The notes beneath the pieces are model-generated. The model did no database searches. It was not told where the DNA came from and saw only the letters and a list, made by a program, of their open reading frames with translations. From an uncultured Pseudomonadales bacterium (GTDB lineage: Bacteria > Patescibacteriota > Microgenomatia > UBA1400 > PJMF01): a DNA stretch of 64,000 bases. This document shows positions 10,020-44,726 of the stretch, in pieces. Within the stretch, counting starts at the first letter, position 1; each line of letters starts with the position of its first letter. Made by a program: the position numbers and the translations under genes. Location of the stretch: assembly GCA_964437755.1 (NCBI GenBank), contig CAYTIA010000003.1:7641-71640 (forward strand), in the 5' to 3' direction.

Positions 10020-11012
10020 ATGTCAAAAGTAAAAATATTTGTTGTAATACCCACCATTAGAGACGTGGAGATGTTAAAGAAGTGGAAGAATCAAATTAAA
10101 GATTGCCATGTCATTATTTGTGAAGACCATCATGAAAAAACAGTAAAAGTTCCAGAAGTTGGCAGAAAGACTTACCATTATTCTTGGAAAGAGATTGATG
10201 AGGACCTTGGAGAAAATAGTTGGATTATTCCCAGAAGAGTTTCTGGTATTCGTAATTACGGATTTCTAAAAGCATTCCAAATGAAAGCTGACATCATAAT
10301 TACTCTAGACGATGACTGTTACCCCGTTAAAAACCATAATTTAATCCAACAACACCTGCAAAATTTAAGCATCTCAGTTCCCAAGAAATGGGTCAACACA
10401 TATCCTGATTCTCGCCATCTATATACACGAGGTATGCCCTATCTTAATAGAACAGAACAGCAGGTGATGATAAGCCATGGCTTATGGACAAACGTTCTAG
10501 ATTTTGATGGAGCAACTCACCTCCAAAAACTCCAGTTTCAGGCTGAATTTGCTCAACATTTCTTACAAATTATTCCCCATGGAGCTTATTACCCAATGTG
10601 CTCGATGAATTTGGCATTTGATGCAAAGATTACTCCAATAATGTATTTTCCATTAATGGGAGAAGATTCTCTAGGTAACAAGTGGGGCTATGATCGTTTT
10701 GATGATATCTGGGCCGGCATCTTTTCAAAAAAGATTATGGATCACCTAGGTTATGCAGTAATCAATGGCTCTCCTTTTGTTAAACACAACAAAGCTTCCG
10801 ACCCGTTTAAAAATTTACAGAAAGAAGCTCTTGGGATAGAAGCAAACGAGGAACTGTGGAAATTAGTGGATCAAGTACACCTTACCTCTTCTTCTCCAGT
10901 TCAGTGTTACTTAGAACTTGCAAATAAAATTAAATGGCCAAAAGAAAAGTATTTTTCAAAAGATTTAAAAAAGGCAATGATTATTTGGGCTTCTCTCTTC
11001 CCAAAAACATAA
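10020..11012 (+). CDS. Reversibly glycosylated polypeptide (RGP) / UDP-L-arabinopyranose mutase-family protein (PF03214-like)
   Basis: Recalled plant RGP/UAM motifs are matched along the whole length: 'VIPTIR', 'ITLDDDCYP', 'SHGLWTNVLDFDGATH', 'PMCSMNLAFD', 'RFDDIWAGIF', 'HNKASDPFKNLQKE'. Confidence 0.65.
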   Translation: MSKVKIFVVIPTIRDVEMLKKWKNQIKDCHVIICEDHHEKTVKVPEVGRKTYHYSWKEIDEDLGENSWIIPRRVSGIRNYGFLKAFQMKADIIITLDDDCYPVKNHNLIQQHLQNLSISVPKKWVNTYPDSRHLYTRGMPYLNRTEQQVMISHGLWTNVLDFDGATHLQKLQFQAEFAQHFLQIIPHGAYYPMCSMNLAFDAKITPIMYFPLMGEDSLGNKWGYDRFDDIWAGIFSKKIMDHLGYAVINGSPFVKHNKASDPFKNLQKEALGIEANEELWKLVDQVHLTSSSPVQCYLELANKIKWPKEKYFSKDLKKAMIIWASLFPKT

Positions 11013-13205: not shown

Positions 13206-14336
13206 ATGAAAAAAAGTATTTTATTTATTTCCGACAGATATCATATTGGAGGTGTTTCATCTTCAATTAAAACCTACATCTCAGCTCTTGATGAAAATTA
13301 CAAAGTTATTCTTATAGCTCGAGAAGATAATTTAACTAACTCTCAAGATTTTTTTAAAAACTGTACTCCTGTTACTGTAAGTGGAAAGGTTAGATTCTCA
13401 TTAATTGGTAGATTGCTTGACTCTTTTCAGTATCTTAAAGAGCTTCATAAGATTTACATGAAATATCAACCAGAAGTGGTACATTTTTCAACTACTTGGT
13501 CCTCTCTCTACTCTTTTCTTCATCCATTAACATGGAGAAAAAAACGAGTTATTACTTTCCACGGAGCCTTTGATTTAGAAGAAATAAGCAGCAATCAATC
13601 CAGTTCAAAGATAGATTTAAAACTCAAAAAAACACTTCAAAAATTCTCTCTGCAAAGCTCTCACAAGATAATAGTTTTTAGTCAATTCGCTAAAAAATTA
13701 GTTCTAACTCACTTCGGAGATAAGCTTAATGAAAAGATTTTATTGATTCCTGGCTCTACTCAGACTAAACAAATAAAACATCTTAAAAATAAAGAGCTTA
13801 CACTTGTTAATTTTGGGAGGGCTGAGCCACGAAAAGGCCTGGATCTTATTTTTGTGGCAGTTAGTGAGCTATTAAAGAGAGGAATAAAAACAAAATTATA
13901 TCTTGCCTCCCCAGTAGAGTTTTACTATTACACTGATTTGTTGAAGGTTTATCAAGAAAACAACCTTTTTTTGTCAGTTCATCTAACACATTTGGTTTCA
14001 AGTGAGCAAAAAGAACATTTGTTACAGATGGCAGATTTATTTATTATGCCATCAGTTGAACTTGAAACATTTGGATTAACAGTTATTGAAAGTCTTGCGC
14101 ACGGAGTTCCAGTAATTGGCAGTGATTGTGGAGCAATCCCAGAAATATTAAGCAAGGTTAATAAACAATTAATATTTTCGAAGAAATCACCGGAGTCATT
14201 AGTTGAAAAAATTACTTGGTATAGTCAACTTAGCAATGAGGAGAAGCAAAAAATTAGAATAAAATGCATTCGGACTGTAGAACAGTATTATTCTGTTGAA
14301 AAGAATAAGCAGAAAATAATGAGTATTTATGGATAA
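13206..14336 (+). CDS. Glycosyltransferase family 4 (tandem duplicate copy 1)
   Basis: 'MPSVELETFGLTVIESLAHGVPVIGSDCGAIPEI' GT4 motif. It is 100% identical to the next gene from residue about 21 onward. Confidence 0.7.
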   Translation: MKKSILFISDRYHIGGVSSSIKTYISALDENYKVILIAREDNLTNSQDFFKNCTPVTVSGKVRFSLIGRLLDSFQYLKELHKIYMKYQPEVVHFSTTWSSLYSFLHPLTWRKKRVITFHGAFDLEEISSNQSSSKIDLKLKKTLQKFSLQSSHKIIVFSQFAKKLVLTHFGDKLNEKILLIPGSTQTKQIKHLKNKELTLVNFGRAEPRKGLDLIFVAVSELLKRGIKTKLYLASPVEFYYYTDLLKVYQENNLFLSVHLTHLVSSEQKEHLLQMADLFIMPSVELETFGLTVIESLAHGVPVIGSDCGAIPEILSKVNKQLIFSKKSPESLVEKITWYSQLSNEEKQKIRIKCIRTVEQYYSVEKNKQKIMSIYG

Positions 14337-14375: not shown

Positions 14376-15509
14376 ATGAAAATAAAAACAATATTATTCA
14401 CCATTGATAATTATCACATCGGAGGTATCACCTCCTTCATTAAAACCTACATCTCAGCTCTTGATGAAAATTACAAAGTTATTCTTATAGCTCGAGAAGA
14501 TAATTTAACTAACTCTCAAGATTTTTTTAAAAACTGTACTCCTGTTACTGTAAGTGGAAAGGTTAGATTCTCATTAATTGGTAGATTGCTTGACTCTTTT
14601 CAGTATCTTAAAGAGCTTCATAAGATTTACATGAAATATCAACCAGAAGTGGTACATTTTTCAACTACTTGGTCCTCTCTCTACTCTTTTCTTCATCCAT
14701 TAACATGGAGAAAAAAACGAGTTATTACTTTCCACGGAGCCTTTGATTTAGAAGAAATAAGCAGCAATCAATCCAGTTCAAAGATAGATTTAAAACTCAA
14801 AAAAACACTTCAAAAATTCTCTCTGCAAAGCTCTCACAAGATAATAGTTTTTAGTCAATTCGCTAAAAAATTAGTTCTAACTCACTTCGGAGATAAGCTT
14901 AATGAAAAGATTTTATTGATTCCTGGCTCTACTCAGACTAAACAAATAAAACATCTTAAAAATAAAGAGCTTACACTTGTTAATTTTGGGAGGGCTGAGC
15001 CACGAAAAGGCCTGGATCTTATTTTTGTGGCAGTTAGTGAGCTATTAAAGAGAGGAATAAAAACAAAATTATATCTTGCCTCCCCAGTAGAGTTTTACTA
15101 TTACACTGATTTGTTGAAGGTTTATCAAGAAAACAACCTTTTTTTGTCAGTTCATCTAACACATTTGGTTTCAAGTGAGCAAAAAGAACATTTGTTACAG
15201 ATGGCAGATTTATTTATTATGCCATCAGTTGAACTTGAAACATTTGGATTAACAGTTATTGAAAGTCTTGCGCACGGAGTTCCAGTAATTGGCAGTGATT
15301 GTGGAGCAATCCCAGAAATATTAAGCAAGGTTAATAAACAATTAATATTTTCGAAGAAATCACCGGAGTCATTAGTTGAAAAAATTACTTGGTATAGTCA
15401 ACTTAGCAATGAGGAGAAGCAAAAAATTAGAATAAAATGCATTCGGACTGTAGAACAGTATTATTCTGTTGAAAAGAATAAGCAGAAAATAATGAGTATT
15501 TATGGATAG
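14376..15509 (+). CDS. Glycosyltransferase family 4 (tandem duplicate copy 2)
   Basis: Identical protein to copy 1 except the first about 21 aa. The DNA is identical over about 1070 bp (13266-14335 vs 14439-15508). Confidence 0.7.
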   Translation: MKIKTILFTIDNYHIGGITSFIKTYISALDENYKVILIAREDNLTNSQDFFKNCTPVTVSGKVRFSLIGRLLDSFQYLKELHKIYMKYQPEVVHFSTTWSSLYSFLHPLTWRKKRVITFHGAFDLEEISSNQSSSKIDLKLKKTLQKFSLQSSHKIIVFSQFAKKLVLTHFGDKLNEKILLIPGSTQTKQIKHLKNKELTLVNFGRAEPRKGLDLIFVAVSELLKRGIKTKLYLASPVEFYYYTDLLKVYQENNLFLSVHLTHLVSSEQKEHLLQMADLFIMPSVELETFGLTVIESLAHGVPVIGSDCGAIPEILSKVNKQLIFSKKSPESLVEKITWYSQLSNEEKQKIRIKCIRTVEQYYSVEKNKQKIMSIYG

Positions 15510-17192: not shown

Positions 17193-17993
17193 TTACATCC
17201 AGTCATCAAAAGTTGACGACCCTTTTCTAAAGACCCAAACTCCAAAGAAAAAAAATACAACTGAAGTTACCACACCAATCACAAGTGTGCTTACAAACTC
17301 ATTTCCAGTAACCGCTTGCTCAAGATATCCCAGGCTTCCAAAACGAAACAGAGCAATTAAGCCAGTCATTGGATTTAAATAAAAAAGGTTTTTAATTGAT
17401 TCTGGAATAAGTGTTAGAGAATATACAACTGGTGTGGTATAAAACCACAAAGGCATAATTGCCTGCACCACAAAATTGACATCTCGATATTTAACATTCA
17501 GACTTGAAAACAACAAAGACATTCCAGACGTAAGTATAAGTAGCCATAGTAAAGCTGGCAACAAAACCAACCAATTAATCAAATTTCCCATTCCAAATAA
17601 TAACGCTATTGGTAAAAACAACATTAAAGAGATGGCAAGATGAAAGAAATTAGACAAAACAATTGAAATTATTATGCTTTCTCTTGGGAATTTAGCTTTT
17701 TGAATTAAGCTTCTTTCGTATACAAACATTGGAGTGGTTTTGGTAATACTCATCGAAAAAAAATTCCATGGTAACAGTCCTGAAAAAAGAAAGAGAAAAT
17801 AGTTATCGGTTTGAACTGGCACGAAGAATTGAAAAACAAAACCTATAACCAACATTTGTAAAAGTGGATTTAATAATACCCATAAAAAACCTAAGGATGC
17901 GTGTTTATATCTTGCTTTTATTTCCTTCTCAGTCATTGCTAATAAAAAATCTGACCAGTAACTAAGTCGTTTTTGTATTTTATTTTGATTCAT
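17193..17993 (-). CDS. ABC-2 type transporter permease (Wzm-like)
   Basis: Six predicted TM helices, of ABC-2 family size, with the typical N-terminal 'EIKARYK' region. It sits upstream of its ATPase partner. Confidence 0.7.
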   Translation of the reverse strand: MNQNKIQKRLSYWSDFLLAMTEKEIKARYKHASLGFLWVLLNPLLQMLVIGFVFQFFVPVQTDNYFLFLFSGLLPWNFFSMSITKTTPMFVYERSLIQKAKFPRESIIISIVLSNFFHLAISLMLFLPIALLFGMGNLINWLVLLPALLWLLILTSGMSLLFSSLNVKYRDVNFVVQAIMPLWFYTTPVVYSLTLIPESIKNLFYLNPMTGLIALFRFGSLGYLEQAVTGNEFVSTLVIGVVTSVVFFFFGVWVFRKGSSTFDDWM

Positions 17994-18205
17994 GGGTGTG
18001 AGTGATAATAAAACAAAGAGGTGTTAATGGCAATTTGCAGATTTCTTCACCGTACTCTTTCAAAAATTAAAATTGCCATTTGACACACAAACATTTTTTA
18101 GAGTATTCTATATATCAGGACAGGTTGTGTTCGCTTGTTGTTATTTGTTCAAAAACTGTATACTAAAATAAAATATATATATTTCGCCAAATCAATCTAA
18201 CATCA

Positions 18206-19999
18206 ATGCAGTCAAACTACAACAATATCGATCAGAACACTAATAGTATGGACACAAATAATAGTGAGAGCACAAATATCAATACAAATTCTTCAGGAAT
18301 TAAACTCCTTCAAAATAAAAGGTTTCAATCAAAAAAAGCTAAGTTAATTGCGGGCGGACTTTTTGTATTATTTCTAGTAGTTGCTTTAGGAGCTGGATAT
18401 TTTTTAACTCAAATGGGTCAAGATTTAAGACAACAAGCAGCAGCAGGTGATTATCCAGGTACTTGTTATCCTGGTTCTTGCCCAGCAGGTTGGGAACCAG
18501 CAAATACTGGCATGTGTTATCCAGAATGTGGTGGTAGCCAAGTTTGTTGTATACTAAGCACAAGTTGTTCAGATTATCAAGCTGGCTCTTCTTCATGCCC
18601 CGTCCATTCAAATTTAGCAACTGCTTGCCCAAATTGGGCTAATAAAGGCACGTGTACTAGATGGCTAAATGGACAGTGTCACCCTGTTTATGGTTTGGTT
18701 TGTAGCGATGGTTCATGGGGGGTACCTTGTACAGCGGGTGATGCCGGCTGTCAATACTGCTCTGTGTGTGGTAATTATGAGAGATGTCCAGAAGTTACAC
18801 CAACTCCATCAACATACAATTCACCTACACCAACTCCACCAACATACAATTCGCCAACTCCAACTCCTCCTCTTGTTGAAAGAACTTTATCAGGAAGAGT
18901 GTTTTGTCAAGATATTGGAGATAATCCAGCTGCTCCAAGAGGAACACTGTATCCAATTAGCAACTTTTCTCTAGAAGAATCAACATGGACTCCCGGAGGG
19001 CTTGGAGTAACAGTATCGCTTCCAGTTGGCGCTGACGGTAATTTCAATACTAGCTTAACCACTACCGCAGAACTTTTTGCTGTGCGACTACCATTAATTG
19101 GTGGTGAAAGAAGACTTCCAGATGGAACTTTAAGCAATGGCCAGCCATACAGTGAAATGGTGGGTCCAGTCATTGAGGTATTTGACTATTGTAGATATGT
19201 GGGCAATCCTATTGGTTATGAGTCTTGTATTGTTTCAGCAAGAACAAATCATGTTAACTTTAATTTCAAGTATGAAAATTGTTCTCCAGGAGTTACCATT
19301 ACTCCAACTCCAACTCCCCAAGCTTCACCAACTCCTGTTCAAGTCTATCCTCAGTGTCTTTCGATAGTGATGACTGAACCAGACCAAACTCCAATTCCAA
19401 ATCCAGAAATGGCAGATATTGGTCAATTGGTAAGATTTAGCTGTATGGCAAGCGATCCAACTTTGGTAGCTTGGTATGAATTTAGAACTGCTAAGAGAGT
19501 TCCTACTAGCGTATCACCAATTATTGAAAATTTGGCCTCAGATCCAGCTGGGTCAAATGTTTCAGTTTTATATGAAATTTTGCCTGGAGAATACGTAGCT
19601 CAGTGTAGGGTGTGCTCAATCAATGCTCAACCAGGTGTCTGTGACACGCAGTGGGAGCCAATCATTTGGCCTGAACAACCAGTTGTTCCAACAGCAATTC
19701 CAACCTCAGAACCTATTTCATGTAATCCCGATGGTTCAGTCAGTATGATGATGAATTCCATTGGAGAAGGAATAGAAATTGCTGTTCAATCACTAACCCC
19801 ATTTACTAATGTTGAGCTTAGAATCGTCACCTCAACAAATCAAACCCTTGTTTATAGAGATCCAGAGGTATCGGGTTCTTACGTATGGACATGGATAATA
19901 AGTAATGTTCACCCTAATCAAATCAATGATGTTTATTTTTTTGTAAATACTGATCCTAGTAATCCTGGTTATGGAGGAACTTGTATTGGAATGATTTAA
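18206..19999 (+). CDS. Cys-rich multi-domain surface protein with N-terminal N/T-rich tail, a single TM anchor and Pro/Thr-rich linkers (hypothetical)
   Basis: Polar N-tail, then TM 'LIAGGLFVLFLVVALGAGYFL', a domain with more than 20 Cys, the 'TPTPSTYNSPTPTPPTYNSPTPTPP' linker, and two further domains separated by a 'TPTPTPQASPTP' linker. GC is noticeably above the flanks. Confidence 0.5.
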   Translation: MQSNYNNIDQNTNSMDTNNSESTNINTNSSGIKLLQNKRFQSKKAKLIAGGLFVLFLVVALGAGYFLTQMGQDLRQQAAAGDYPGTCYPGSCPAGWEPANTGMCYPECGGSQVCCILSTSCSDYQAGSSSCPVHSNLATACPNWANKGTCTRWLNGQCHPVYGLVCSDGSWGVPCTAGDAGCQYCSVCGNYERCPEVTPTPSTYNSPTPTPPTYNSPTPTPPLVERTLSGRVFCQDIGDNPAAPRGTLYPISNFSLEESTWTPGGLGVTVSLPVGADGNFNTSLTTTAELFAVRLPLIGGERRLPDGTLSNGQPYSEMVGPVIEVFDYCRYVGNPIGYESCIVSARTNHVNFNFKYENCSPGVTITPTPTPQASPTPVQVYPQCLSIVMTEPDQTPIPNPEMADIGQLVRFSCMASDPTLVAWYEFRTAKRVPTSVSPIIENLASDPAGSNVSVLYEILPGEYVAQCRVCSINAQPGVCDTQWEPIIWPEQPVVPTAIPTSEPISCNPDGSVSMMMNSIGEGIEIAVQSLTPFTNVELRIVTSTNQTLVYRDPEVSGSYVWTWIISNVHPNQINDVYFFVNTDPSNPGYGGTCIGMI

Positions 20000-20048
20000 C
20001 TTACGTAATAATATACAGACTAGTATCCTTAACTTGTAATAATCAATA

Positions 20049-21332
20049 ATGCACATCACTAACAATAATCAATCGCCAACAAATCAGAATAATAATATGA
20101 CTGATTTTTCTAAGACTCAAAGTATGGATTCCAATCCACAAAATAATAGTGGTAAGATTGATTTATCTGGTGCCGGTGCAGCATTTAAACCTGTATCTAG
20201 TGGAGGAACTATTTCTAATACAACCCCAACAACCTTAAGAAAATCACCAACCAAGAAAAAAACTTCTTGGATTATTGCTGGATTTTTAGCACTAGCGTTA
20301 GTTGTAGGTGGATTTTTCTTTTTACAAGAATCAACTGAAAAAAAAGAGGTGCCGACTGCCCCAATTTCAGAGCCATCAGCAGATGAAGAGTATCCCTGTT
20401 CATTATATTTTTCAAACTTTTACACCTGTGGCGAGTTTGGTTGCATAAGTCATGACGATTGTGAAGGAGATTTAATTTGCGCTATCTCTGGAGATAATGA
20501 AAGAGGATACTGCAGTGAGCCCCCACACGTTGATGCTTGTTTGGCTGAACCAAGTTATGAGTCATGCTGTGAATCAATCGATATATCGATTACTCCATCT
20601 CCAACTCCAACTGGTGAACCTGAAGAGCTTACATGCGGAGACTATGGATGCTTTGAAGATAGTGATTGCGAAGAGGAATTAATATGTACTAGACCAGAAA
20701 CTAGCACTTCACCAGGATATTGTAGTGAGCCACCTTATGTTGATGCTTGTTTGGCTGAGCCAAGTTATGAGTCATGCTGTGAGGAGCAATTAACTCCAAC
20801 ACCAACTCCAACCGGAACCCTTACGCCAACAGCTACACCTACTGCTACGCCAACGCCAACAGCTACACCTACTGCTACGCCAACAAGTACTCCAGGACCA
20901 ACAAGTACTCCGGGGCCTACACCAACAGATTCGCCTTTGGCTACGCCAACAACACCAGTAATTGCAACAGCTACTCCAGTAGTCGTCACTTCAACAACTT
21001 CGCCAGTTGCGCCTACAAGTCCACCTTATGCTACACCTCAACCAACTGTACCAGGTCAACCACCTATCTATATTGTTGACACCAGAGCTGAATGTAATGA
21101 TGTGTGTAGCACTAACGAGGATTGCAATAACATAAGTCACATCTGTTACAACGGTCGATGTAGGCTAGACATTAATCCAGAAGATGAGTTCTGTAGAACT
21201 CCTGCTGGAGAAACATATGTTGAAAGAATTGTAGAACAACCAGTAACTGGACCTAGCGATTGGCTCAATTTCCTCAAGATTGGAGTTGGCGCAATCGGAG
21301 CTGGAATACTACTCTTCATACTTCTACTCTAA
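20049..21332 (+). CDS. Cys-rich repeat surface protein with N-terminal TM anchor, long Pro/Thr/Ala linker and a C-terminal hydrophobic anchor (hypothetical)
   Basis: Two about 70-aa Cys modules each end in 'GYCSEPP[HY]VDACLAEPSYESCCE' (DNA repeats at about 20511-20572 and 20721-20782). A 'TPTPTPTGTLTPTATPTATPTPTATPTATPTSTPGPTSTPGPTPT' linker follows. The C-terminus is 'PVTGPSDWLNFLKIGVGAIGAGILLFILLL'. Confidence 0.5.
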   Translation: MHITNNNQSPTNQNNNMTDFSKTQSMDSNPQNNSGKIDLSGAGAAFKPVSSGGTISNTTPTTLRKSPTKKKTSWIIAGFLALALVVGGFFFLQESTEKKEVPTAPISEPSADEEYPCSLYFSNFYTCGEFGCISHDDCEGDLICAISGDNERGYCSEPPHVDACLAEPSYESCCESIDISITPSPTPTGEPEELTCGDYGCFEDSDCEEELICTRPETSTSPGYCSEPPYVDACLAEPSYESCCEEQLTPTPTPTGTLTPTATPTATPTPTATPTATPTSTPGPTSTPGPTPTDSPLATPTTPVIATATPVVVTSTTSPVAPTSPPYATPQPTVPGQPPIYIVDTRAECNDVCSTNEDCNNISHICYNGRCRLDINPEDEFCRTPAGETYVERIVEQPVTGPSDWLNFLKIGVGAIGAGILLFILLL

Positions 21333-21358
21333 AACTCAACGAGGTTAAAAACTGAATA

Positions 21359-21387
21359 CCACCTAGCTAAGCTAGGTGGTTTTTTTT
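21359..21387 (+). terminator. Rho-independent terminator downstream of the Cys-rich protein gene
   Basis: Hairpin ccacctagc-taa-gctaggtgg followed by an 8-nt T run. Confidence 0.7.
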
Positions 21388-21471
21388 ATTATCATTGTTG
21401 ATGATATAATTACTAACAATCTGCTGTTTTCGTTAATTGCATTCAGTTAATCTACCCAGCAGTCTGTTATT

Positions 21472-21545
21472 GCGCGCGTAGCTCAATTGGTTAGAGCACC
21501 AAGCTTATACCTTGGCGGTTCTTGGTTCGAGTCCAAGCGCGCGCA
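21472..21545 (+). tRNA. tRNA with anticodon UAU (tRNA-Ile decoding AUA by anticodon; identity needs confirmation)
   Basis: Hand-folded cloverleaf: acceptor GCGCGCG/CGCGCGC, D-arm GCTC-AATTGGTTA-GAGC, anticodon arm CCAAG-CTTATAC-CTTGG, variable loop CGGTT, T-arm CTTGG-TTCGAGT-CCAAG, discriminator A. No CCA is encoded. Confidence 0.7.
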
Positions 21546-21583
21546 CTCTTTAAATTACATAGTTATATTTAATCCGGAAACTT

Positions 21584-22648
21584 ATGTTATTTGTAAAACT
21601 ACTAACATTTATTAAAAAACAAAAATTTAAGCTGTTAATTGCTTTGTTACTGGCCCTTTTCATCAGTTGGAGAGTATTTGCAAATCAACAAACCAATAAA
21701 ACTGAGTTGGTTTTTGCACACCCAGAGTATCGAAATCTTGTAAGAACCCTAGAGTTAACAGGCTCGGTTGATGCTAAGAAAAAAGCTCGACTTCGGTTTT
21801 TGGCAGGTGGCAAAATCGTTTATTTGGGTGCGGAAGAGGGAGATCAAGTTAAACAATGGCAAACCATCGCAACCATTGATCAAAGAGACCTTCAAAAACG
21901 TCTTGAAAGATCTCTAAATAACTATATGCAACAACGATGGGATTGGGAAGATTTGCAAGATGATATTAAGGACGAGCTTCTTGACACCAGTGAACAAAGA
22001 TCTGTTGATAAACAACAGTGGACATTAGACAACACAGTCATCGATGTAGAGCTTCAAGATATAGCTATATCACAATCAGTTATGAGCTCCCCTTTTACTG
22101 GAATTCTTGTTTCCAGTCCTGTTAATTCAACTCACACTCAAGTAACAGCTACTGACTATTTTGAAATTATTGATCCACAATCACTAGTATTTAGAGCAGA
22201 AATCAATGAAGAAGACGTGCCTCTTGTAAAACTTGATCAAGCTGCAATTATTGAATTAGATGCTTATCCAAATCAATCTCTTGAAAGTCAAGTTAGCTAT
22301 ATTTCGTATCAAAGCTTAATCAAGTCAAGTGGAACGGTCTTTTTAATCGAATTACCTCTTATTAATGAAGATGCTAATAATCTCGAAACTGGAAAAACTA
22401 TGTTAGACAAGTATAGACTTGGCATGAATGGAGATGTAAGCCTAGAACTTGAAAAAAAAGATAATGTTTTAAGCGTTCCTCTCATCTCTATTAAACAAAG
22501 AGATGACCAAAACTATGTTGAGATAAAATCAGCTGATGGAAAAACTGAAGAGAGGCTTGTCGAAATTGGGCTTGAAACAGAAGAGTTCGTTGAAATTATT
22601 TCAGGATTGTCTCAAGAAGATTTAATTGTGATTCCAAGCTTTAATTAA
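21584..22648 (+). CDS. Efflux transporter periplasmic adaptor subunit (HlyD/MacA family)
   Basis: N-terminal TM, coiled-coil middle and a beta-barrel C-terminus. Immediately upstream of an ABC ATPase and an FtsX-like permease. Confidence 0.6.
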   Translation: MLFVKLLTFIKKQKFKLLIALLLALFISWRVFANQQTNKTELVFAHPEYRNLVRTLELTGSVDAKKKARLRFLAGGKIVYLGAEEGDQVKQWQTIATIDQRDLQKRLERSLNNYMQQRWDWEDLQDDIKDELLDTSEQRSVDKQQWTLDNTVIDVELQDIAISQSVMSSPFTGILVSSPVNSTHTQVTATDYFEIIDPQSLVFRAEINEEDVPLVKLDQAAIIELDAYPNQSLESQVSYISYQSLIKSSGTVFLIELPLINEDANNLETGKTMLDKYRLGMNGDVSLELEKKDNVLSVPLISIKQRDDQNYVEIKSADGKTEERLVEIGLETEEFVEIISGLSQEDLIVIPSFN

Positions 22649-22684
22649 TATATAGAAGTTTGCCCATAGTAGTTCTCAATCCAA

Positions 22685-23437
22685 ATGAAAAAAGTGGTTA
22701 AAAATTCAAAAAAAAACGCTTCAGGCCGCTCTGAAAAAAGCGATGTTATTCTAGAGTTAAAAAACGTCTGCAAGATTTATTATGTTGGTACGCAGATAAT
22801 AAAAGCTTTGGAGTGCATGGATTTTTCAATTAAACGAGGTGAGTTTGTTGCAGTAATTGGTTCTTCAGGATCTGGAAAGTCAACTTTTTTACAAGTTGCC
22901 AGCATGCTATCAGAGCCTAGCAAAGGAACCATTTTTCTTAATGGAAAGGATGTAACAAAGTACAATGAAGTTGAAAGAGCTAAGCTTAGAAATAAAGAGA
23001 TTGGTTTTATTTTTCAGCAATTTAATTTATTAGCTCGAACTAAAGCAGTTGATAATGCTTCTCTTCCTCTCGTTTATGCCGGCGTAAACCAATCTGAAAG
23101 AGAAAAAAGAGCTAAAGAGCTTTTAATTAAGCTTGGACTAGAAGATAGATTAAACAATAAACCAAATGAGTTATCTGGTGGGCAACAACAACGAGTTGCA
23201 ATCGCTAGAGCCTTAATTAATAACCCTAGTGTTATCTTTGCTGATGAACCTACTGGGAATCTTGATTCAAAAAGTGGCGATGAAGTAGAAAAAATCTTAA
23301 AAGATTTGCACAAACAAGGAACGACCATTATCTTAGTAACGCATGAAAAAAGACTAGCAAAAATCGCTCAGAGAGTAATTGAGCTCAAGGATGGTAAACT
23401 TCTGGCCGAACACAAACCTCCTTTTAAAAAACTCTAA
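22685..23437 (+). CDS. ABC transporter ATP-binding protein (MacB/LolD-type)
   Basis: Walker A 'GSSGSGKSTFL', signature 'LSGGQQQRVAIARAL', Walker B 'IIFADEPTGNLD'. Confidence 0.85.
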   Translation: MKKVVKNSKKNASGRSEKSDVILELKNVCKIYYVGTQIIKALECMDFSIKRGEFVAVIGSSGSGKSTFLQVASMLSEPSKGTIFLNGKDVTKYNEVERAKLRNKEIGFIFQQFNLLARTKAVDNASLPLVYAGVNQSEREKRAKELLIKLGLEDRLNNKPNELSGGQQQRVAIARALINNPSVIFADEPTGNLDSKSGDEVEKILKDLHKQGTTIILVTHEKRLAKIAQRVIELKDGKLLAEHKPPFKKL

Positions 23438-23446
23438 GAAACAAAA

Positions 23447-24661
23447 ATGAATATCGCCAATACTACCACCATCGCTTTAAGAGCCATCTTTTCAAACAAA
23501 GTAAGAAGCTTATTAACCATGCTGGGCGTAATTATTGGCGTTAGTTCAGTGGTGATGCTTATTTCACTTGGAAGAGGACTCGAAGCATTCGTCACTCAGT
23601 CTTTTGAAGACCTGGGCTCAAACAACATCTTCGTTTCTCCAGGAAATGTTTTTTCAGAAGACGGAGGATTTAATTCTTTCCAAGATCAAGGCTTAAGCGC
23701 AATGACAAATAGTTTTAATAAGTCTGATGTTAAGGAGATTTCTCGCCTAAGAGAGCATGTTTTGAAAGTGGCTTATTATTCAGCTCAGTCAGATACTTTG
23801 AAATTTATGAATAACTCAGAAAAGTCAACTATTCTTGGTACCAACTCAGACTACAACCAGGTATTAATAACAAAGCTTGAAAAAGGAAGATGGTTTAATA
23901 ACTCTGAAGGAGAATCTGGAGATAGAGTGGTGGTTTTAGGATATAAAATCGCTGAAGAGCTATTTGGAGAGGTCGATCCAATCCATAAAAAAATAAGAGT
24001 GGGAAATGTGACCTTTACAGTTGTGGGAGTAGCAGAAGAAAAAGGCAGTGGATTTGGAGGCCCTTCTTTTGACAGCTACACCTATATTCCCTATGAAACA
24101 CTTTCTAGAATTTATAACACTAACAACATTATGGATATTGTGGTTAAAGCTAGAGATGATACAAAAATACCTGATGCTATCTCAGCAGTTGAAAAAACAC
24201 TTGAGAAAAAATATAAGGATGACGAATTTTCTGTTTATGATCAAGCAGAATTGCTCAAGGTGATTCAAGATATATTGGGAATGTTGACTATAGCTTTGGG
24301 GGGAATTGCCGCTATCTCGTTGTTAGTTGGAGGAATTGGCATTATGAACATTATGCTTGTTTCCGTTACAGAAAGAACCAAAGAGATCGGTTTAAGAAAA
24401 GCCTTAGGAGCCACTCCAAGCGCCATTTTAGGACAGTTTCTTGTTGAGGCCGCCTTCTTATCGATTTTAGGAGGAGTTGTTGGCTTGGGTATTGCCTATG
24501 CTGGATCTTTAGCAATTCAACCTTTCTTTCCCGCCAAGGTAACAACTGAGGCTGTATTGCTTGCGTTTGGCGTATCAACTGTAGTTGGATTAGTTTTTGG
24601 AGCAGCACCCGCACGCCGCGCTTCTCTTCTTTCTCCAATCGAGGCATTACGTTACGAGTAA
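23447..24661 (+). CDS. ABC transporter permease, FtsX-like (MacB periplasmic-domain type)
   Basis: N-terminal TM, a large periplasmic domain and a C-terminal 3-TM FtsX-like region with 'GGIGIMNIMLVSVTERTKEIGLRKALGA'. Confidence 0.8.
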   Translation: MNIANTTTIALRAIFSNKVRSLLTMLGVIIGVSSVVMLISLGRGLEAFVTQSFEDLGSNNIFVSPGNVFSEDGGFNSFQDQGLSAMTNSFNKSDVKEISRLREHVLKVAYYSAQSDTLKFMNNSEKSTILGTNSDYNQVLITKLEKGRWFNNSEGESGDRVVVLGYKIAEELFGEVDPIHKKIRVGNVTFTVVGVAEEKGSGFGGPSFDSYTYIPYETLSRIYNTNNIMDIVVKARDDTKIPDAISAVEKTLEKKYKDDEFSVYDQAELLKVIQDILGMLTIALGGIAAISLLVGGIGIMNIMLVSVTERTKEIGLRKALGATPSAILGQFLVEAAFLSILGGVVGLGIAYAGSLAIQPFFPAKVTTEAVLLAFGVSTVVGLVFGAAPARRASLLSPIEALRYE

Positions 24662-26365: not shown

Positions 26366-27784
26366 ATGAAACTTACTCCTCATTCACAAAATCGTTTCTA
26401 CTCTTCATTTTTAAAGAAAGTTTTTGTTTTTTTATCAATCTTAATATTTTTAACCTACAAACTAACTTCACTTGAATATCGATTCGGAGACCAAAACGCC
26501 TACTTTTACATGGCGAGAGCAATATTGGAAGGAAATATTCCCTATCGTGACTTTATATTAGCTGACCCTCCATTGCTAGTTTATTTACTGTCCATTACAA
26601 AAAAAATAATTGGTGATAATGTTCTTTTGTTTTCGGCTTTACCACCATTATTCGATGTTCTTAGCAGTTTCATTTTATATATATATTTAACACGAAAAAA
26701 AATTTCATTTTCTTTTCTGGCACCAGCAATTTATCTGTTTTCATTTTTAATACTTTCTACCAGCGATTACGTAACCGGATTACATCTTGTGTTGTTCCTG
26801 ATAAATTTAGCTTTGTTGTATGAAAAAAAGCCTAAAGTAGCTGGAATTTTTTGGGGCTTAGCCACACTTATAAAGCTTTACTCTATTCCAGGATTCATGA
26901 TTTTTTTTATTTGGTCTTTTAAAAATAAAAACCGTAAGTATTTTTTAAAACTATTAATTAGTTATTGCCTAACTGGATTAGCTGTTATGTTACCCTTTTT
27001 ACTAATTTCTCCAGAGCACGTCATTGACCAGATTATTGTTCACCAGTTTAATAGACCAGCAGGAATCGCAAAATTAAATGTTTTTTACTTCTTTTTTATT
27101 CAAGATTTTCCATTAATTATTTTTGGGGTAACGGGACTGATTTGGAAAAAAAACTGGCAAATTTTAATACTATTTTTATCCTGGATACTTTTCTACTTAA
27201 TTTTCAAAGACCTCTATTATGTGTATCTTGGAATATTAACTCCCTGGCTGACAATTGGACTTATTAACTTCTTGGAGGCTCTCAAAAATAAGTGGCATAT
27301 TAACAATATGGGTCACAAACTATCAATAAGTTTAATCTTATTAATCTTTATGAGTCACCTACCCGCCCTGCACTTCTACCAAACAAAAATTAAACTAGAT
27401 GGTAAGTTTATCCAAGCAAAAGAAGTTTCACAGTTTGTTAATAATCTTGAGCCAGCTCTACCTTTATATGGATCTCATGAGGTAGCTCCGCTAATAGCCC
27501 TGCTAACGAATAAGCCTCTTTTTAATAATTATCTTGATACCAATGCTCAAATTTTTGCTTCTGGAGCACTGGATAAAAAAAAGGTTTCACTCGAAACTGT
27601 CGAGAGTGGAATTTATTTACTGACTAAAGTAACTAATCTCCCCATAAATGCCAAGCTAGATTCTGGGCATGAAGGTTATTTTGATTCAGAAATATTTGAA
27701 AAATACTGTCAAAGATTGACGATAATTAACGGTCTGCAAGTTGAACTTTTTTCTGATGTGGCAATTTATCGTTGTCAAAAATAA
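26366..27784 (+). CDS. Polytopic membrane protein, putative GT-C-fold glycosyltransferase (ArnT/PMT-like)
   Basis: About 11 TM helices. The first extracytoplasmic loop 'LEYRFGDQNAYFYMARAILEG' carries acidic residues. The C-terminal soluble domain is about 140 aa. Confidence 0.35.
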   Translation: MKLTPHSQNRFYSSFLKKVFVFLSILIFLTYKLTSLEYRFGDQNAYFYMARAILEGNIPYRDFILADPPLLVYLLSITKKIIGDNVLLFSALPPLFDVLSSFILYIYLTRKKISFSFLAPAIYLFSFLILSTSDYVTGLHLVLFLINLALLYEKKPKVAGIFWGLATLIKLYSIPGFMIFFIWSFKNKNRKYFLKLLISYCLTGLAVMLPFLLISPEHVIDQIIVHQFNRPAGIAKLNVFYFFFIQDFPLIIFGVTGLIWKKNWQILILFLSWILFYLIFKDLYYVYLGILTPWLTIGLINFLEALKNKWHINNMGHKLSISLILLIFMSHLPALHFYQTKIKLDGKFIQAKEVSQFVNNLEPALPLYGSHEVAPLIALLTNKPLFNNYLDTNAQIFASGALDKKKVSLETVESGIYLLTKVTNLPINAKLDSGHEGYFDSEIFEKYCQRLTIINGLQVELFSDVAIYRCQK

Positions 27785-27788: not shown

Positions 27789-30122
27789 CTATAATTTCGC
27801 CCTGATCTGCATCTCCTCTTCAATAAGAGCTCTGTCTTTTCCGTATTTAAGCCTAGACAACTCCTTAATCATTTCAGCTAATTTTGGATTCATTTGTGCC
27901 TCAATCTTGTCCATATCTTTTTCAAGAGATACGCTAAAAGGTGGAACTGGCTCATTATTCACAATCGTTTTCATGTACACATGATATTTTTCAATGTTTG
28001 TTAAATCTGCTTCATTAAAGGTTGGCACAAATTCATGTTGCAAGAAATTTGCATCAGTCACACCAACTCTAAAAGAAACCATGGTGCCTACATTACCAAA
28101 AACGGCATTTTTTACATCTTCTTCTATTTGACCGACATACTGATTGGCAACTATTAGGTTTAGTTTGTATTTTCTTGCCTCAGACAAAATCACAGCAAAG
28201 TCTTCGGTTGCATAATTCTGAAACTCATCAACGTATAAAAAGAAGTCATGTCGTTGATCTTGAGGTACATCAGCTCTACTCATGGCAGCGGTTAAGATTT
28301 TTGGTACCAGAATCAATCCCAAGAATTTGGCATCTTCCTCTCCCAAAACACCTTTTGAAAGATTACAAAGAAGAATTTTCTTTTCGTCCATTGCTTTTCT
28401 AAAGTCAAAAGCGCTCTGAGTTTGACCAATAATATTACGCATCACTTTGTTGGTCACAAAACGACCAAATTTTGAAACAATATAGTCCAATACTTCCGAC
28501 TTATGAAAATCGCTCGTTTGCGCAATTTGATCAGTCCAGTATCTTTTAACAACTGGATCTTTAATATAAGGTAACATCTCTTTAACAAAGTTTTCATCTG
28601 TGAGAATTCTCACCACTTCGATAAATGTTGAGTTTTCCCTACTCATAACTGATAGCATTGCATTTCTAATAGCATGCTCGAAACGAGGTCCAATAATACC
28701 TGTGCGGTGCGGATCATACAGCTTATACATTAAGGAAATAATAGAACCTACAACAAAATGTCTTTGGTCCTCATTGTAGGCCTCCATGATGTTAAGGCCC
28801 ATTGGACGCTCCTTATCTGATGGATTGAAGTAAATCACGTCCTCAGCTCTCTCCGCAGGCATTAGCTGCATCACATCCTCCACAAACTCTCCGTGCGGAT
28901 CAATGGCAGCAACCCCATGACCGTTTTCAATATCCTGCAAGATCATCTGCTTAAGAAATTCGGATTTACCCGTACCGGTTTTACCAACAATATACATGTG
29001 ACGCCTGCGATCCTTAAGGCTCATATACACTTTTCGCGTTTCACCTCGATAATGAGATTCTCCTATAAATAATCCTGACTGAGGAATTTCGTGTGGAGCC
29101 GGTGCGTTTTTAGCCGTTAACCACTTAATGTGATGAGTCTCAACCGTTTTGTTAGGAAAATGAAAGATGGTAGCTAGCTCAGATGTATTAAAAACACTAG
29201 TACCCTTATTAAAAAGAGGCATATAGCGATAAATAAAATCAATCATAAATAAGTGCTTTAAAAAAATGCGAACTTTTTTAAATGAGTTGTGAGCTGAAAC
29301 AAACTGAGAAAAAGAGCCTTTCACATTTTCAACATGAAGTTTTGCCATCTCTTCATTTTGAGCTGAAACTACAACTCTAATAGATGTTCTAAAACCAGGC
29401 CTAGAAATCTTGTCGCTAATAGCTTCCATTTCTTTAGGATCGTGAGTGTATGAGGCCTTTTCAGGATCTGCTTCCTTTTTCTTTTGCTTACTCATATAAG
29501 AATTTCCTCTTTTTTGCCAACGACCACCGATGGGTTGAATCAGTATCTGCAACACTCCTCCCTCGCCTGTTTGCATTTTTGATAAAGATGATGTGATTAA
29601 GGACAGTCCATCTGTCGGTAAATCCTTATAAGTTTGAATTGGATAATAGGTTGGTTTTTCAAGCTTAATTGCCCCAAAAGCAACCTTACCCTCTTCGTTA
29701 AAAATATTCACCTCATCAACCTCTTTAATTACGGCTTGAGGATAGGCGCCATTAATTTGTTTCTCAACGATGTCTTGAATTTTTTTGGAGCAACTTACAT
29801 AAAATCCAAGCTCTTCTTGTAATGACACTATTTCAAAAGCTATTGTTTCTTGTCTTTTTGTAAAAGAAAAAAAACCACTTTTATGCAAAGAATAAAGACC
29901 AGCAAACATCTGTTCGGCCGCATCGATCTTGATTTCATTGTCTTTAGGAAGTTTGACCAGGAGAGTTACAAAATTAATAGCATAATCTTCTCTTTTTAAA
30001 TGCTTTAGCCATTGGGCAAACATATAAATAAATACCCCAATCAACAGAATAATTAGCACAAATAAAAGGATACCTGCAAAAACTGCAAAAAGTTGGTTTA
30101 CTAGTTGATTAATTGAGTCCAT
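27789..30122 (-). CDS. FtsK/HerA-superfamily secretion ATPase, VirB4/TraC-like (DUF87-type)
   Basis: N-terminal TM, an about 350-aa N-domain, Walker A 'GKTGTGKSEF', 'AAIDPHGE', Walker B 'FFLYVDEFQNY', and 'RKYKLNLIVANQYVGQI' (the RKYG..ATQ motif of VirB4/VirD4/HerA). Confidence 0.55.
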   Translation of the reverse strand: MDSINQLVNQLFAVFAGILLFVLIILLIGVFIYMFAQWLKHLKREDYAINFVTLLVKLPKDNEIKIDAAEQMFAGLYSLHKSGFFSFTKRQETIAFEIVSLQEELGFYVSCSKKIQDIVEKQINGAYPQAVIKEVDEVNIFNEEGKVAFGAIKLEKPTYYPIQTYKDLPTDGLSLITSSLSKMQTGEGGVLQILIQPIGGRWQKRGNSYMSKQKKKEADPEKASYTHDPKEMEAISDKISRPGFRTSIRVVVSAQNEEMAKLHVENVKGSFSQFVSAHNSFKKVRIFLKHLFMIDFIYRYMPLFNKGTSVFNTSELATIFHFPNKTVETHHIKWLTAKNAPAPHEIPQSGLFIGESHYRGETRKVYMSLKDRRRHMYIVGKTGTGKSEFLKQMILQDIENGHGVAAIDPHGEFVEDVMQLMPAERAEDVIYFNPSDKERPMGLNIMEAYNEDQRHFVVGSIISLMYKLYDPHRTGIIGPRFEHAIRNAMLSVMSRENSTFIEVVRILTDENFVKEMLPYIKDPVVKRYWTDQIAQTSDFHKSEVLDYIVSKFGRFVTNKVMRNIIGQTQSAFDFRKAMDEKKILLCNLSKGVLGEEDAKFLGLILVPKILTAAMSRADVPQDQRHDFFLYVDEFQNYATEDFAVILSEARKYKLNLIVANQYVGQIEEDVKNAVFGNVGTMVSFRVGVTDANFLQHEFVPTFNEADLTNIEKYHVYMKTIVNNEPVPPFSVSLEKDMDKIEAQMNPKLAEMIKELSRLKYGKDRALIEEEMQIRAKL

Positions 30123-42984: not shown

Positions 42985-43386
42985 TTGCTACTAGAGATGT
43001 TTAATCAACTTTACTTCTTAATCAACGGCTTTAATTCGTTTGCTCCAAAAGCAAACACTGGTTTAAATTTGTCTGATTATTTAAGAGTTCAAGATAAACA
43101 AGGAAATTCCTCATCAATCGCTGAAGTTTACAACAGTCCCTCAGTTTTCGTAAATCTGATAGTGAGTAATCTTTTTATAATTGCAGGAATAATCATTTTT
43201 TTTATGGTTATTGGAGCTGGATTTAGCTATCTAAAAGATTCTGATAAAGGAAAGGATGATGCAAAAAATCTCGCAACTGGAGCTGTTCTTGGATTTCTTG
43301 TGATGTTTGCAGCCTATTGGATTGTCCAAATTGTAAAGTTATTAACTGGAGCTGATATTCCAATTGATGGGGCTGGCCCAATTTAA
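42985..43386 (+). CDS. VirB2/TrbC-like T4SS pilin-family small membrane protein, paralog 1
   Basis: Hydrophobic helix, polar loop 'YLKDSDKGKDDAKN', second hydrophobic helix. Same architecture as paralogs 2-7. The likely true start is the ATG at 42997. Confidence 0.45.
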   Translation: MLLEMFNQLYFLINGFNSFAPKANTGLNLSDYLRVQDKQGNSSSIAEVYNSPSVFVNLIVSNLFIIAGIIIFFMVIGAGFSYLKDSDKGKDDAKNLATGAVLGFLVMFAAYWIVQIVKLLTGADIPIDGAGPI

Positions 43387-43434
43387 AAAATTACTAACTT
43401 TATACTCAACATATTCATATACAATAAAGCCCAC

Positions 43435-43890
43435 ATGATTAAAAAATTTATTAGTCACAAGCCTTTATTATCTTTTCTCTCAATTGCAACCACACTGTTG
43501 TCACAGCTATTTTTTCCTTTAAGAATATTTGCTCAAACAACCGATCCTTTATTTGGCACCATTGAGCCTCCTGTAGGAGTTGACAAATATCAAGATCAAA
43601 TCGGCCCAGGAGAAATCGGTATTATTTTATTTGTTTCAAATCTAATTAGACTTGTTACAATAGTGGCTGGTATCTGGACCATGCTAAACTTCATCTTAGC
43701 AGGATGGTTATATATAACCTCTTCCGGAGATTCGGACACTGGATCAAAAGTTTCTACAAAAATGATCAATAGTGTTATGGGATTTGCCATTATTGCTCTT
43801 TCCTACACCATAGCAGCTTTAGTTGGACTACTTATTTTTGGAGACGCCTCTTATATTATTAATCCGCAGCTAACATCAGTTTTAAATTAA
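43435..43890 (+). CDS. VirB2/TrbC-like pilin-family protein, paralog 2
   Basis: Signal peptide, TM, loop 'WLYITSSGDSDTGSKVSTKM', TM. Confidence 0.45.
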   Translation: MIKKFISHKPLLSFLSIATTLLSQLFFPLRIFAQTTDPLFGTIEPPVGVDKYQDQIGPGEIGIILFVSNLIRLVTIVAGIWTMLNFILAGWLYITSSGDSDTGSKVSTKMINSVMGFAIIALSYTIAALVGLLIFGDASYIINPQLTSVLN

Positions 43891-43897
43891 ATTTTTA

Positions 43898-44335
43898 TTG
43901 AAACAGAACATGTTAAACTCGACAAAAACAATTTTTAAAATCATTTTTAATCTAGTTAATGCGAGTCCTGTTAGCGCTCAATTTAATCGAGGAATTGAGC
44001 CACCAAGTGATTCTCCTTATCTAGATATCGTTAGTGGCAGCGGTGATGTAGAGCCACTCCCTGCTTTTGTTTTATTTTTGTCAAACTTAATTGGGTTAAT
44101 TACCCTGGTTGGAGGGCTCTTTTTCATCGTTTATTTTTTTATGGGAGCTTTTAACTGGGTTACTGGAGGCGAAGATTCTGGTAAAGTAGAAAAAGCGCGA
44201 CAAAAAATGATGCATGGAGTACTTGGCCTTGTTGTTTTGGTAATGAGCTATTCACTAATTGGTATTGTTGGCACTATTGTTGGCATTGATCTAATAAACC
44301 TAGAAGAAACTATTATGAGGATCGTTCCTCAATAA
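43898..44335 (+). CDS. VirB2/TrbC-like pilin-family protein, paralog 3
   Basis: Signal peptide, TM, loop 'FNWVTGGEDSGKVEKARQKM', TM. Confidence 0.5.
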   Translation: MKQNMLNSTKTIFKIIFNLVNASPVSAQFNRGIEPPSDSPYLDIVSGSGDVEPLPAFVLFLSNLIGLITLVGGLFFIVYFFMGAFNWVTGGEDSGKVEKARQKMMHGVLGLVVLVMSYSLIGIVGTIVGIDLINLEETIMRIVPQ

Positions 44336-44350
44336 TTATAATATTGAAAA

Positions 44351-44719
44351 ATGTTTAACACCTTTTCATCACTAATACTCAAAGCACAGGCTACATTAAC
44401 CAATCCAATTGTTGGCAATTGGGGAGCTGATGCCGAAGAAGCCACAAGCGGCAGCTTATTTTTTTCTTATGCTTTAAGAATGTGGAGAGTTGGAATGTAT
44501 GCGGGATCTTTAATTGTTTTGGTATATTTTGTATGGGCCGGTGTTGAGTGGATAACTAGCGGAAATGATACTAAAGGAGTGGAAAGCGCAAAAAAAAGAC
44601 TAACCAATGCTGCTATAGGCTTAGTACTAATGGTTTGTTCATTTGCAATAATAGCCTATCTTAATGAATTATTATTTGAAGGTGAATTTGATCTGCTCGA
44701 GTTCACCATACCTGGATAA
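44351..44719 (+). CDS. VirB2/TrbC-like pilin-family protein, paralog 4
   Basis: TM, loop 'VEWITSGNDTKGVESAKKRL', TM. Confidence 0.5.
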   Translation: MFNTFSSLILKAQATLTNPIVGNWGADAEEATSGSLFFSYALRMWRVGMYAGSLIVLVYFVWAGVEWITSGNDTKGVESAKKRLTNAAIGLVLMVCSFAIIAYLNELLFEGEFDLLEFTIPG

Positions 44720-44726
44720 TCCATAT

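Follow-up and report, generated by a model that had tools for sequence, protein, structure and literature searches.

The Patescibacteria, or candidate phyla radiation (CPR), account for a large share of bacterial diversity and most of them are thought to be cell-attached; their surface proteins are almost unknown. Among the known proteins closest to those considered here are the sortase-anchored LPXTG surface proteins of Gram-positive bacteria (TIGR01167 / PF00746), including MSCRAMM-type adhesins and pilins, which combine an N-terminal export signal, a modular passenger, and a Pro-rich spacer with a C-terminal pentapeptide and hydrophobic helix, and in which position 1 of the pentapeptide varies among the known sortase classes. 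Méheust et al. 2019 (PMC6744442) report that a sortase family is near-ubiquitous among the Microgenomates and that the CPR is enriched in an MdbA-like disulfide oxidoreductase together with VKOR. In the literature on LPXTG or Cys-rich surface proteins in Patescibacteria/CPR, no description of the protein family reported below was found. The subject of this study is a 64,000-nucleotide (nt) stretch of contig CAYTIA010000003.1 (assembly GCA_964437755.1), referred to as the window, and within it two adjacent genes, A and B, which an earlier note on this DNA had singled out as encoding Cys-rich membrane proteins with Pro/Thr linkers. The evidence supports the view that both genes, which belong to a Microgenomates-type Patescibacteria (CPR) bacterium, encode modular, Cys-rich surface proteins that are exported and non-enzymatic. 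We consider it probable that B is a sortase-anchored, wall-spanning modular surface protein and that A is its secreted or membrane-tethered partner, and our best guess for the role of the two proteins is binding or envelope structure.

Results

The C terminus of protein B and its family

As judged from its sequence, the C terminus of B is homologous to the LPXTG-type sorting signals of sortase substrates. The pentapeptide QPVTG lies 26 residues from the C terminus and keeps the P, T, and G of the canonical motif, with Q in place of L. The helix that follows has a mean Kyte-Doolittle hydropathy of 2.4 over amino acids (aa) 405 to 427, was modeled by AlphaFold2 (AF2) as a helix at residues 402 to 426, and ends in ILLFILLL. 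The last ~90 residues of B were near-invariant among orthologues of only 41 to 54% overall identity. A profile made from the last 87 residues and searched against 1.84 billion cluster representatives matched 334 clusters at an E value of ≤1e-3, including 171 at ≤1e-10, and among the 150 matches listed the aligned region stood at the extreme C terminus except in a small number of truncated or partial entries; the proteins were 92 to 1504 aa long. The pentapeptide at the aligned position in these relatives was LPQTG in 34, LPETG in 23, LPQSG in 20, and LPESG in 12, and the columns aligned to QPVTG (158 sequences) held L in 76%, P in 93%, T, S, or A in 98%, and G in 98%.

The tails of 64 relatives were compared one by one with NCBIfam at E ≤1. 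The TIGR01167 LPXTG_anchor model was matched by 30 of them (best E value, 7e-5), and the other models matched repeatedly were all sortase-signal models, namely, EF0750_LPXTG (16 tails), SpaH/EbpB (7 tails), and LPxTATN (5 tails). Where bit scores were reported for the relatives' LPXTG matches, they lay below the cutoff (13.6 versus 15.9 for TIGR01167 and 19.3 versus 20 for PF00746). Distant family members bear DUF11 repeats and RrgB-type isopeptide domains, and since such domains are typical of sortase substrates, they support the LPXTG reading of the family. One or more 6-Cys knot repeats were found directly before the motif across the family. The suggestion made earlier that B is anchored by its N terminus alone is at odds with this C-terminal homology.

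Cys modules and spacer of protein B

Between its two helices, B carries two 8-Cys modules, a Pro/Thr spacer, and a C-terminal 6-Cys knot (Table 1). The modules are 52 to 53 aa each and 62% identical, with near identity confined to the final 23 aa (22 of 23 residues); the two near-identical 70-aa Cys modules of the earlier note are thus right in number and wrong in size and degree of identity. The direct DNA repeat that had been noticed here was recovered at positions 20504 to 20572 and 20714 to 20782 with 90% identity, and the 30-nt and 18-nt tandem repeats described in the linker were also found, together with a further 30-nt tandem in A. The AF2 model of B was confident for both 8-Cys modules, the knot, and both helices, while the tail and linkers were predicted to be disordered. 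The 8-Cys modules were modeled with a predicted local distance difference test (pLDDT) score of ~90, and a Foldseek search of the B model against the PDB returned no significant match, the best E value being 0.46 and the neighbors being colipase/Dickkopf and knottin-type mini-proteins.

The knot has the pattern C-x3-C-x5-C-x6-C-x4-C-x10-C. In B it matched DUF7107 weakly, at 16.4 bits and below the cutoff of 24.6, and in the relative P0052 the knot repeat matched the knottin family PF02977 above the cutoff (34.7 versus 25 bits). Homologues of B numbered 25 among 5.8 billion sequences, and those that were named came from Microgenomates or Patescibacteria metagenome-assembled genomes.

N-terminal regions and the unpaired stalk cysteine

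Both proteins begin with an Asn/Gln/Thr-rich tail, followed by a Lys/Arg cluster and one strongly hydrophobic helix (aa 43 to 71 in A and aa 71 to 95 in B), which is also a helix in the AF2 models of both proteins. Each carries an N-terminal export signal of an atypical kind, in which 40 to 70 residues precede the helix and no clear cleavage site is seen. Together, the long tail, the basic cluster, and the N-terminal helix place the remainder of each protein outside the cell. An N-terminal hydrophobic helix was present in 163 of 166 family members, with its first residue at a median position of 51, so that long tails precede it throughout the family.

Two types of leader follow the helix. Type 1, Q-[DE]-[LV]-R-Q-Q-A, was found in 35 of the 166 family members and in A, and type 2, in which P-V-A-P-x-A-P-x-S-x-P-x-A is followed after 3 to 7 residues by C-[TS]-L-x-F-x-V, was found in 77 members and in B. 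The P, S, P, A, C, and F positions of type 2 were 99 to 100% conserved (67 sequences). An odd number of Cys residues was counted in 65 of 66 full-length type-2 proteins versus 10 of 39 type-1 proteins, and the orthologues of B contain 7, 15, 23, or 31 Cys, corresponding to 1+8n+6. It follows that the stalk Cys (Cys117 in B) systematically lacks a partner within its own protein, and the counts would fit a closed set of disulfides in each module. A lipoprotein-type role for Cys117 was rejected on three grounds: there is no lipobox, the residue at −1 is variable, and the Cys lies ~20 residues past the helix. No supporting motif was seen for thioester, pilin-motif, or intein-like readings of the stalk.

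A small membrane protein encoded downstream of B (Table 1) contains the invariant sequence EKAxEYxxYxYCxxVV and exactly one Cys in 16 of 16 orthologues, and it received no family assignment; its membership in an A-B system is uncertain. In a separate observation, the sequence PRDFLPAKYKK or PAKYLKSK stood at the extreme N terminus of distant A-like proteins (loci L014, L016, L017, and L018) and of distant B-like proteins, which hints at a shared cytoplasmic targeting signal.

Protein A and its relationship to protein B

Protein A has a single hydrophobic helix with a basic cluster on its N-terminal side and no C-terminal anchor. The type II, single-pass topology assigned to both proteins in the earlier note accordingly holds for A, where KRFQSKKAK precedes the one helix, and fails for B, where a second helix is present (aa 405 to 427). 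Homologues of A numbered 7 among the same 5.8 billion sequences, and the alignment stayed shallow, a third homologue search with the YPQC domain gaining one protein. Foldseek matched the A model to tandem FN3/Ig arrays (E value, ~4e-5), a result that, given a poor model, is read as "beta-sandwich-like" only. Neither A nor B matched a Pfam or NCBIfam family above the cutoff, in line with the absence of catalytic motifs reported before, and PDB sequence-profile searches with both family alignments returned nothing relevant.

The two proteins had been called paralogous. Direct comparison did not sustain this, as BLASTP gave a weak whole-protein alignment with an E value of 0.01. There is nonetheless a family link at the level of modules, because domains of A occur inside orthologues of B: the A middle domain was found within P0010 (E value, 3e-17), and a homologue of the A C-terminal domain is inserted in P0017 (E value, 9e-11).

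Module exchange and linker length

Domain content varied among close orthologues of A. The middle domain is missing in P0002, P0003, and P0005, which are 78 to 87% identical to A in the shared parts; P0004 has a different Cys-rich head and P0005 a different C-terminal domain. In P0002, the lost middle domain is replaced by the linker string PTPTGTLTPTATPTATPTPT, which also occurs in the B protein of the window, and this shared string suggests that recombination may proceed through linker DNA. Linker length was found to vary as well. An independent ENA assembly contig of 3745 nt (L021) equals window positions 17487 to 21261 with no mismatch and a single 30-nt gap, and the gap is exactly one tandem unit (20823 to 20852). 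This one-unit difference therefore represents a linker length polymorphism, as the potential for length variation pointed out earlier had led one to expect.

Gene structure, composition, and transcription unit

The two open reading frames (ORFs) are both real and lie on the + strand, and the features first used to describe them, namely, Asn/Gln/Thr-rich N-terminal tails, Cys density, and Pro/Thr linkers, are present in both proteins. Their features are collected in Table 1. The alternative start of B coincides with the first residue of the orthologue P0008, which begins at the equivalent of Met17, and no entry identical to the 427-aa product was present in the protein collection searched. Antisense ORFs inside A and B were dismissed as composition shadows of Pro/Thr codons.

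Genes A and B are separated by 49 nt. This short gap, with a strong terminator and a tRNA gene following B, indicates that A and B form their own two-gene transcription unit. The tRNA was the sole match in an Rfam scan. The promoter upstream of A is a candidate only, as promoter-like sites were no more numerous than expected from shuffling.

Cys makes up 4.7% of A and 5.4% of B versus a mean of 0.97% in the other long ORFs of the window. The GC content of 0.38 to 0.41 at A-B is elevated relative to the upstream region (0.27 to 0.31), as had been stated; it is not a special mark of the pair, the downstream region having 0.34 to 0.39 and the whole excess being carried by codon position 2 (0.51 to 0.55 in A and B versus 0.30 to 0.38 in the neighbors). 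GC at codon position 3 (GC3) was 0.23 to 0.24, the same as in neighboring genes. With the excess confined to position 2 and GC3 normal, the elevated GC therefore follows from the use of Pro, Thr, Ser, Ala, Gly, and Cys codons and is not a sign of foreign DNA.

Table 1. Features of genes A and B and of their immediate surroundings, in window coordinates
Feature	Position	Strand	Remarks
Candidate promoter, TTGACA-18-TATTCT	18080-18109	+	Consensus scan; between the divergent genes Wzm and A, in an intergenic region of 212 nt
Gene A	18206-19999	+	597 aa; real ORF; 28 Cys
A hydrophobic helix, aa 43-71	18332-18439 (span includes QDLRQQA)	+	Preceded by KRFQSKKAK; followed by type-1 leader QDLRQQA (aa 72-78, 18419-18439)
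A Cys-rich head, aa 87-194	18464-18787	+	17 Cys; structure not confidently predicted
A linker with 30-nt tandem repeat	18796-18867	+	2.4 copies; encodes PTPPTYNS units
A middle beta domain, aa 226-359	18881-19282	+	LSGRVFCQD...SNGQPYSEM...NFNFKYENC; beta strands in AF2 model
A "YPQC" beta domain, aa 381-484	19346-19657	+	Sole module shared by every A-like protein
A C-terminal beta domain, aa 506-597	19721-19996	+	From AF2 model
Gene B	20049-21332	+	427 aa; real ORF; 23 Cys; alternative start 20097 (Met17)
B motif LSGAGAAFKP, aa 39-48	20163-20192	+	Conserved in B alignment; cytoplasmic tail
B N-terminal hydrophobic helix, aa 71-95	20259-20333	+	Preceded by RKSPTKKK
B type-2 leader stalk, PTAPISEPSADEEYPCSLYF	20352-20411	+	Invariant P..P.S.P.A; lone Cys117
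B 8-Cys module 1, aa 125-176	20421-20576	+	AF2 pLDDT ~90
B 8-Cys module 2, aa 194-246	20628-20786	+	AF2 pLDDT ~90
B Pro/Thr spacer, ~90 aa	20793-21056	+	Predicted disordered (pLDDT <50 at aa 251-332)
B perfect 30-nt tandem	20823-20884	+	Inside Pro/Thr spacer
B 18-nt tandem	20882-20917	+	16/18 identical; inside Pro/Thr spacer
B C-terminal 6-Cys knot, CNDVCSTNEDCNNISHICYNGRCRLDINPEDEFC	21093-21194	+	Near-invariant in B alignment; pLDDT ~85
B sorting-signal-like end	21237-21329	+	QPVTG (aa 397-401), PSDWLNFLK, hydrophobic helix aa 405-427
Intrinsic terminator	21358-21390	+	10-bp stem with 6 GC pairs, T-run; 26 nt past B stop
tRNA-Ile(UAU)	21472-21546	+	Downstream of terminator
Small conserved membrane protein, 115 aa	24678-25025	+	True start 24678; N-terminal helix, helical ectodomain

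Conserved gene order and neighboring genes

Seventeen loci were obtained from a scan of species-representative genomes, and ~20 related loci were compared overall. The labels of the scanned loci include Patescibacteria, Parcubacteria, and Candidatus Pacebacteria, and the label "Pseudomonadales" on several third-party annotation records is evidently a placeholder. Across the ~20 loci, the order was an A-like gene, B, tRNA-Ile, and the small membrane protein. The tRNA-Ile(UAU) gene directly followed B in 17 of 17 distinct loci extending past the B stop, the window besides, and the small protein was syntenic with B in all loci; where these were more distant, it came immediately behind the tRNA. 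As this order is kept in ~20 Patescibacteria loci, A and B are regarded as a core pair that is inherited vertically. Unrelated housekeeping genes (MFS, Pth, DNA ligase, and Fic) were equally syntenic; because gene order as a whole is conserved in the lineage, adjacency is weak evidence of function.

In the window, the tRNA is followed by genes for a YknX/HlyD-like adaptor (membrane fusion protein, MFP), an ABC ATPase, and a MacB/FtsX permease (21584 to 24661), with the small protein after them. Lineage-specific insertions were seen directly after tRNA-Ile(UAU), comprising these MFP-ABC-MacB genes and, in L003, PRiA4/metallophosphatase genes, which fits a tRNA-linked insertion hot spot.

The glycan locus named in the earlier note was confirmed in the upstream region, at 2 to 17 kb of the window, and comprises eight GT4 genes together with GT2, Wzy_C, RGP, and Wzm/Wzt genes. 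Two adjacent GT4 genes (13206 to 14336 and 14376 to 15509, + strand) have identical Pfam scores and look like a very recent tandem duplication. The RGP family gene (10020 to 11012, + strand; E value, 1e-53) encodes a reversibly glycosylated polypeptide / UDP-arabinopyranose mutase-like protein, has a homologue in the L022 glycan cluster, and belongs to a family known mainly from plants.

Several genes further downstream were also recorded. At 26366 to 27784 (+ strand), a 472-aa protein has a weak match to GT87 (GT-C type, lipid-linked-sugar glycosyltransferase; E value, 3e-4) and is not syntenic elsewhere; it is possibly an extracytoplasmic glycosyltransferase. A 777-aa ATPase (27789 to 30122, − strand) with DUF87/HerA, TrwB, and TraG-D_C matches (VirD4/VirB4-like) is 78 to 89% identical and syntenic in the closer loci and may be part of the type IV secretion system that PMC12857230 discusses for Patescibacteria. 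In a tandem array at 42985 to 46142 (+ strand), seven paralogous small membrane proteins of 122 to 162 aa, each with two hydrophobic helices, share G-x-x-W-[IL]-x-[SA]-G-G-D-x-x-x-x-E-K-A-[RK]; the first two had no Pfam match, and the set resembles VirB2/TrbC-type type IV secretion pilins. DUF4012 was the sole match of a 1006-aa protein (56440 to 59460, − strand).

Discussion

The reading that we favor can be stated as a sequence of steps. Both A and B would be exported by Sec, and their Cys modules would be oxidized by machinery of the MdbA/VKOR type. A sortase would then cut B between T and G and link it to peptidoglycan, leaving the Pro/Thr spacer to span the wall and display the Cys modules of B, and A, either tethered by its N-terminal helix or released, would work alongside B.

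Several observations weigh against this sequence of events. No LPXTG model matched B even at E ≤1, position 1 of the motif being Q rather than L. The canonical basic tail is missing, with K or R in the last six residues of only 3 of 166 family members. The stretch that follows the motif, G-P-x-D-W-x-N-W-L-K-x-G-x-G-x-L-G-x-G, is conserved above the level of ordinary sorting signals and could mark a functional membrane helix that is never removed. No sortase gene was detected in the 64-kb window or in loci L001 to L020 by a TLxTC motif scan or by phmmer with S. aureus SrtA as the query, which together make a weak test. For A, the AF2 model was poor (pLDDT, 42), with all-beta regions at aa 226 to 357, 384 to 471, and 511 to 579. 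B might then be a two-helix hairpin membrane protein that sortase does not process, its motif a relic and its Gly-rich C-terminal helix packed against another helix. The lack of a basic tail and of LPXTG model matches would be explained in this way, as would the strong conservation of the post-motif peptide and of the G-x-G-x-x-G-x-G helix, and two further points agree with it: the B clade bears [QTPA]PV[TSA]G rather than LPxTG, and the N-terminal helix is Gly-rich too. However, the B clade retains P, T/S/A, and G in the motif, the homology between the end of B and canonical LPQTG tails is clear, and the position that differs is the one that varies among known sortase classes. We therefore regard the hairpin as possible, with a distinctly smaller chance of being right than sortase anchoring.

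Other readings start from the neighboring genes. A tie to the glycan machinery, through O-glycosylation of the Pro/Thr spacers or through a part in export or attachment of the Wzm/Wzt polysaccharide, would be compatible with sortase anchoring of B. The long Pro/Thr linkers and the confirmed glycan locus speak for it, and Wzm/Wzt genes lie divergently upstream in 10 of the 15 loci with enough flank (the window, L004, L012, L014, L016, L017, L019, L022, L023, and L024). In the other five (L001, L006, L007, L009, and L025), however, PGK/S1 is found upstream instead, and the housekeeping genes are just as syntenic. The cytoplasmic GT4/GT2 enzymes and the ABC-2 exporter build polymers, no protein O-glycosyltransferase was identified, and glycosylation is not readable from sequence, so that we hold this tie to be unlikely. 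It appears very improbable that A, B, or both serve the MacB-type ABC transporter and its HlyD/YknX-like adaptor as substrates or accessory components. The MFP, ABC, and MacB genes do follow B in the window as well as in 11 further distinct loci, but these form the closer clade; the transporter is absent beside B in L013 to L020, L023, and L024, where the small protein comes directly after B and the tRNA, and four unrelated genes intervene in L003. A strong terminator and the tRNA gene stand between B and the transporter. On the evidence of terminator, tRNA, and gene order in distant loci, membership of A and B in a MacB operon was rejected. A horizontally acquired, strain-specific adhesin island, to which the GC difference from the upstream region and the differing domain content of close orthologues might point, is contradicted and deserves hardly any credence: GC3 equals that of the neighbors with the excess in codon position 2 only, the chromosomal position is the same in ~20 genomes, and there are no flanking mobility genes. 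GC3 and synteny were the grounds for rejecting it.

A more far-reaching proposal starts from the N terminus. B-type proteins might be a Patescibacteria-specific envelope tether, bridging membrane and wall via a new N-terminal module and a variant sortase signal. The module would consist of the long tail with its short motif, a retained helix, the invariant P-x-x-P-x-S-x-P-x-A stalk, and the unpaired Cys. This lone Cys would serve as a site of covalent attachment or processing, for example, an intermolecular disulfide to the small membrane protein or to a second B, and the spacing of the envelope would be determined by the Pro/Thr spacer, whose length varies. If the proposal were true, the stalk would represent a novel kind of sorting or attachment signal at the N terminus, beyond a mere signal anchor. 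We consider it quite unlikely.

Returning to sortase anchoring as the favored account, the significance of the pair lies largely in the family to which it leads. More than 300 protein clusters without Pfam or NCBIfam description combine the Cys knot with a tail-less, LPXTG-like anchor and two invariant leader types. The family gives a means of cataloguing, from sequence, the wall-anchored surface proteins of Patescibacteria, and it also suggests that a Patescibacteria sortase recognizes a non-canonical signal. In the pair, a core, syntenic position goes together with quick changes in domain content and in the length of the linkers, as would be expected of proteins that face hosts or phages, and the stalk Cys that is systematically left unpaired is an oddity concrete enough to test.

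Compared with described systems, the Cys modules of B, at 35 to 55 aa and with 6 or 8 Cys, are like the small disulfide knots (PF02977 potato carboxypeptidase A inhibitor, colipase/Dickkopf-type, and DUF7107), which were the best structural neighbors though without a significant Foldseek match. Whereas knottins are free toxins or inhibitors, the B-type modules are bacterial, tandemly arrayed, and part of predicted wall-anchored proteins. By analogy, A and B may also be likened to the Pro/Thr-linker and serine-rich-repeat glycoproteins with KxYKxGKxW-type signals, in having low-complexity spacers that are encoded by tandem repeats and variable in length, and perhaps in having a long, motif-bearing N-terminal region before a Gly-containing hydrophobic core. 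The motifs are different, being LSGAGAAFxP and PAKYLKSK here, and unlike in those systems, neither accessory Sec genes nor dedicated glycosyltransferases were seen adjoining the pair. The resemblance to these glycoproteins is a lead and not a test.

Another close likeness is to the LPXTG surface proteins, which B resembles in its N-terminal export signal, modular passenger, Pro-rich spacer, and C-terminal pentapeptide followed by a hydrophobic helix, and whose LPQTG/LPETG motifs, DUF11 repeats, and RrgB-type domains recur among the relatives of B. It differs from them in having QPVTG and in scoring below the threshold of every LPXTG model, and its family differs in the near absence of the basic tail (3 of 166 with K/R), in the conserved GP-x-DW-x-NWLK peptide and Gly-zipper-like helix after the motif, in the conserved 6-Cys knot directly before it, and in the very long tails ahead of the N-terminal helix with their invariant juxtamembrane motifs. 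No new mechanism is demonstrated; A and B are of a familiar kind, that of the sortase-type surface proteins, in a diverged form specific to Patescibacteria.

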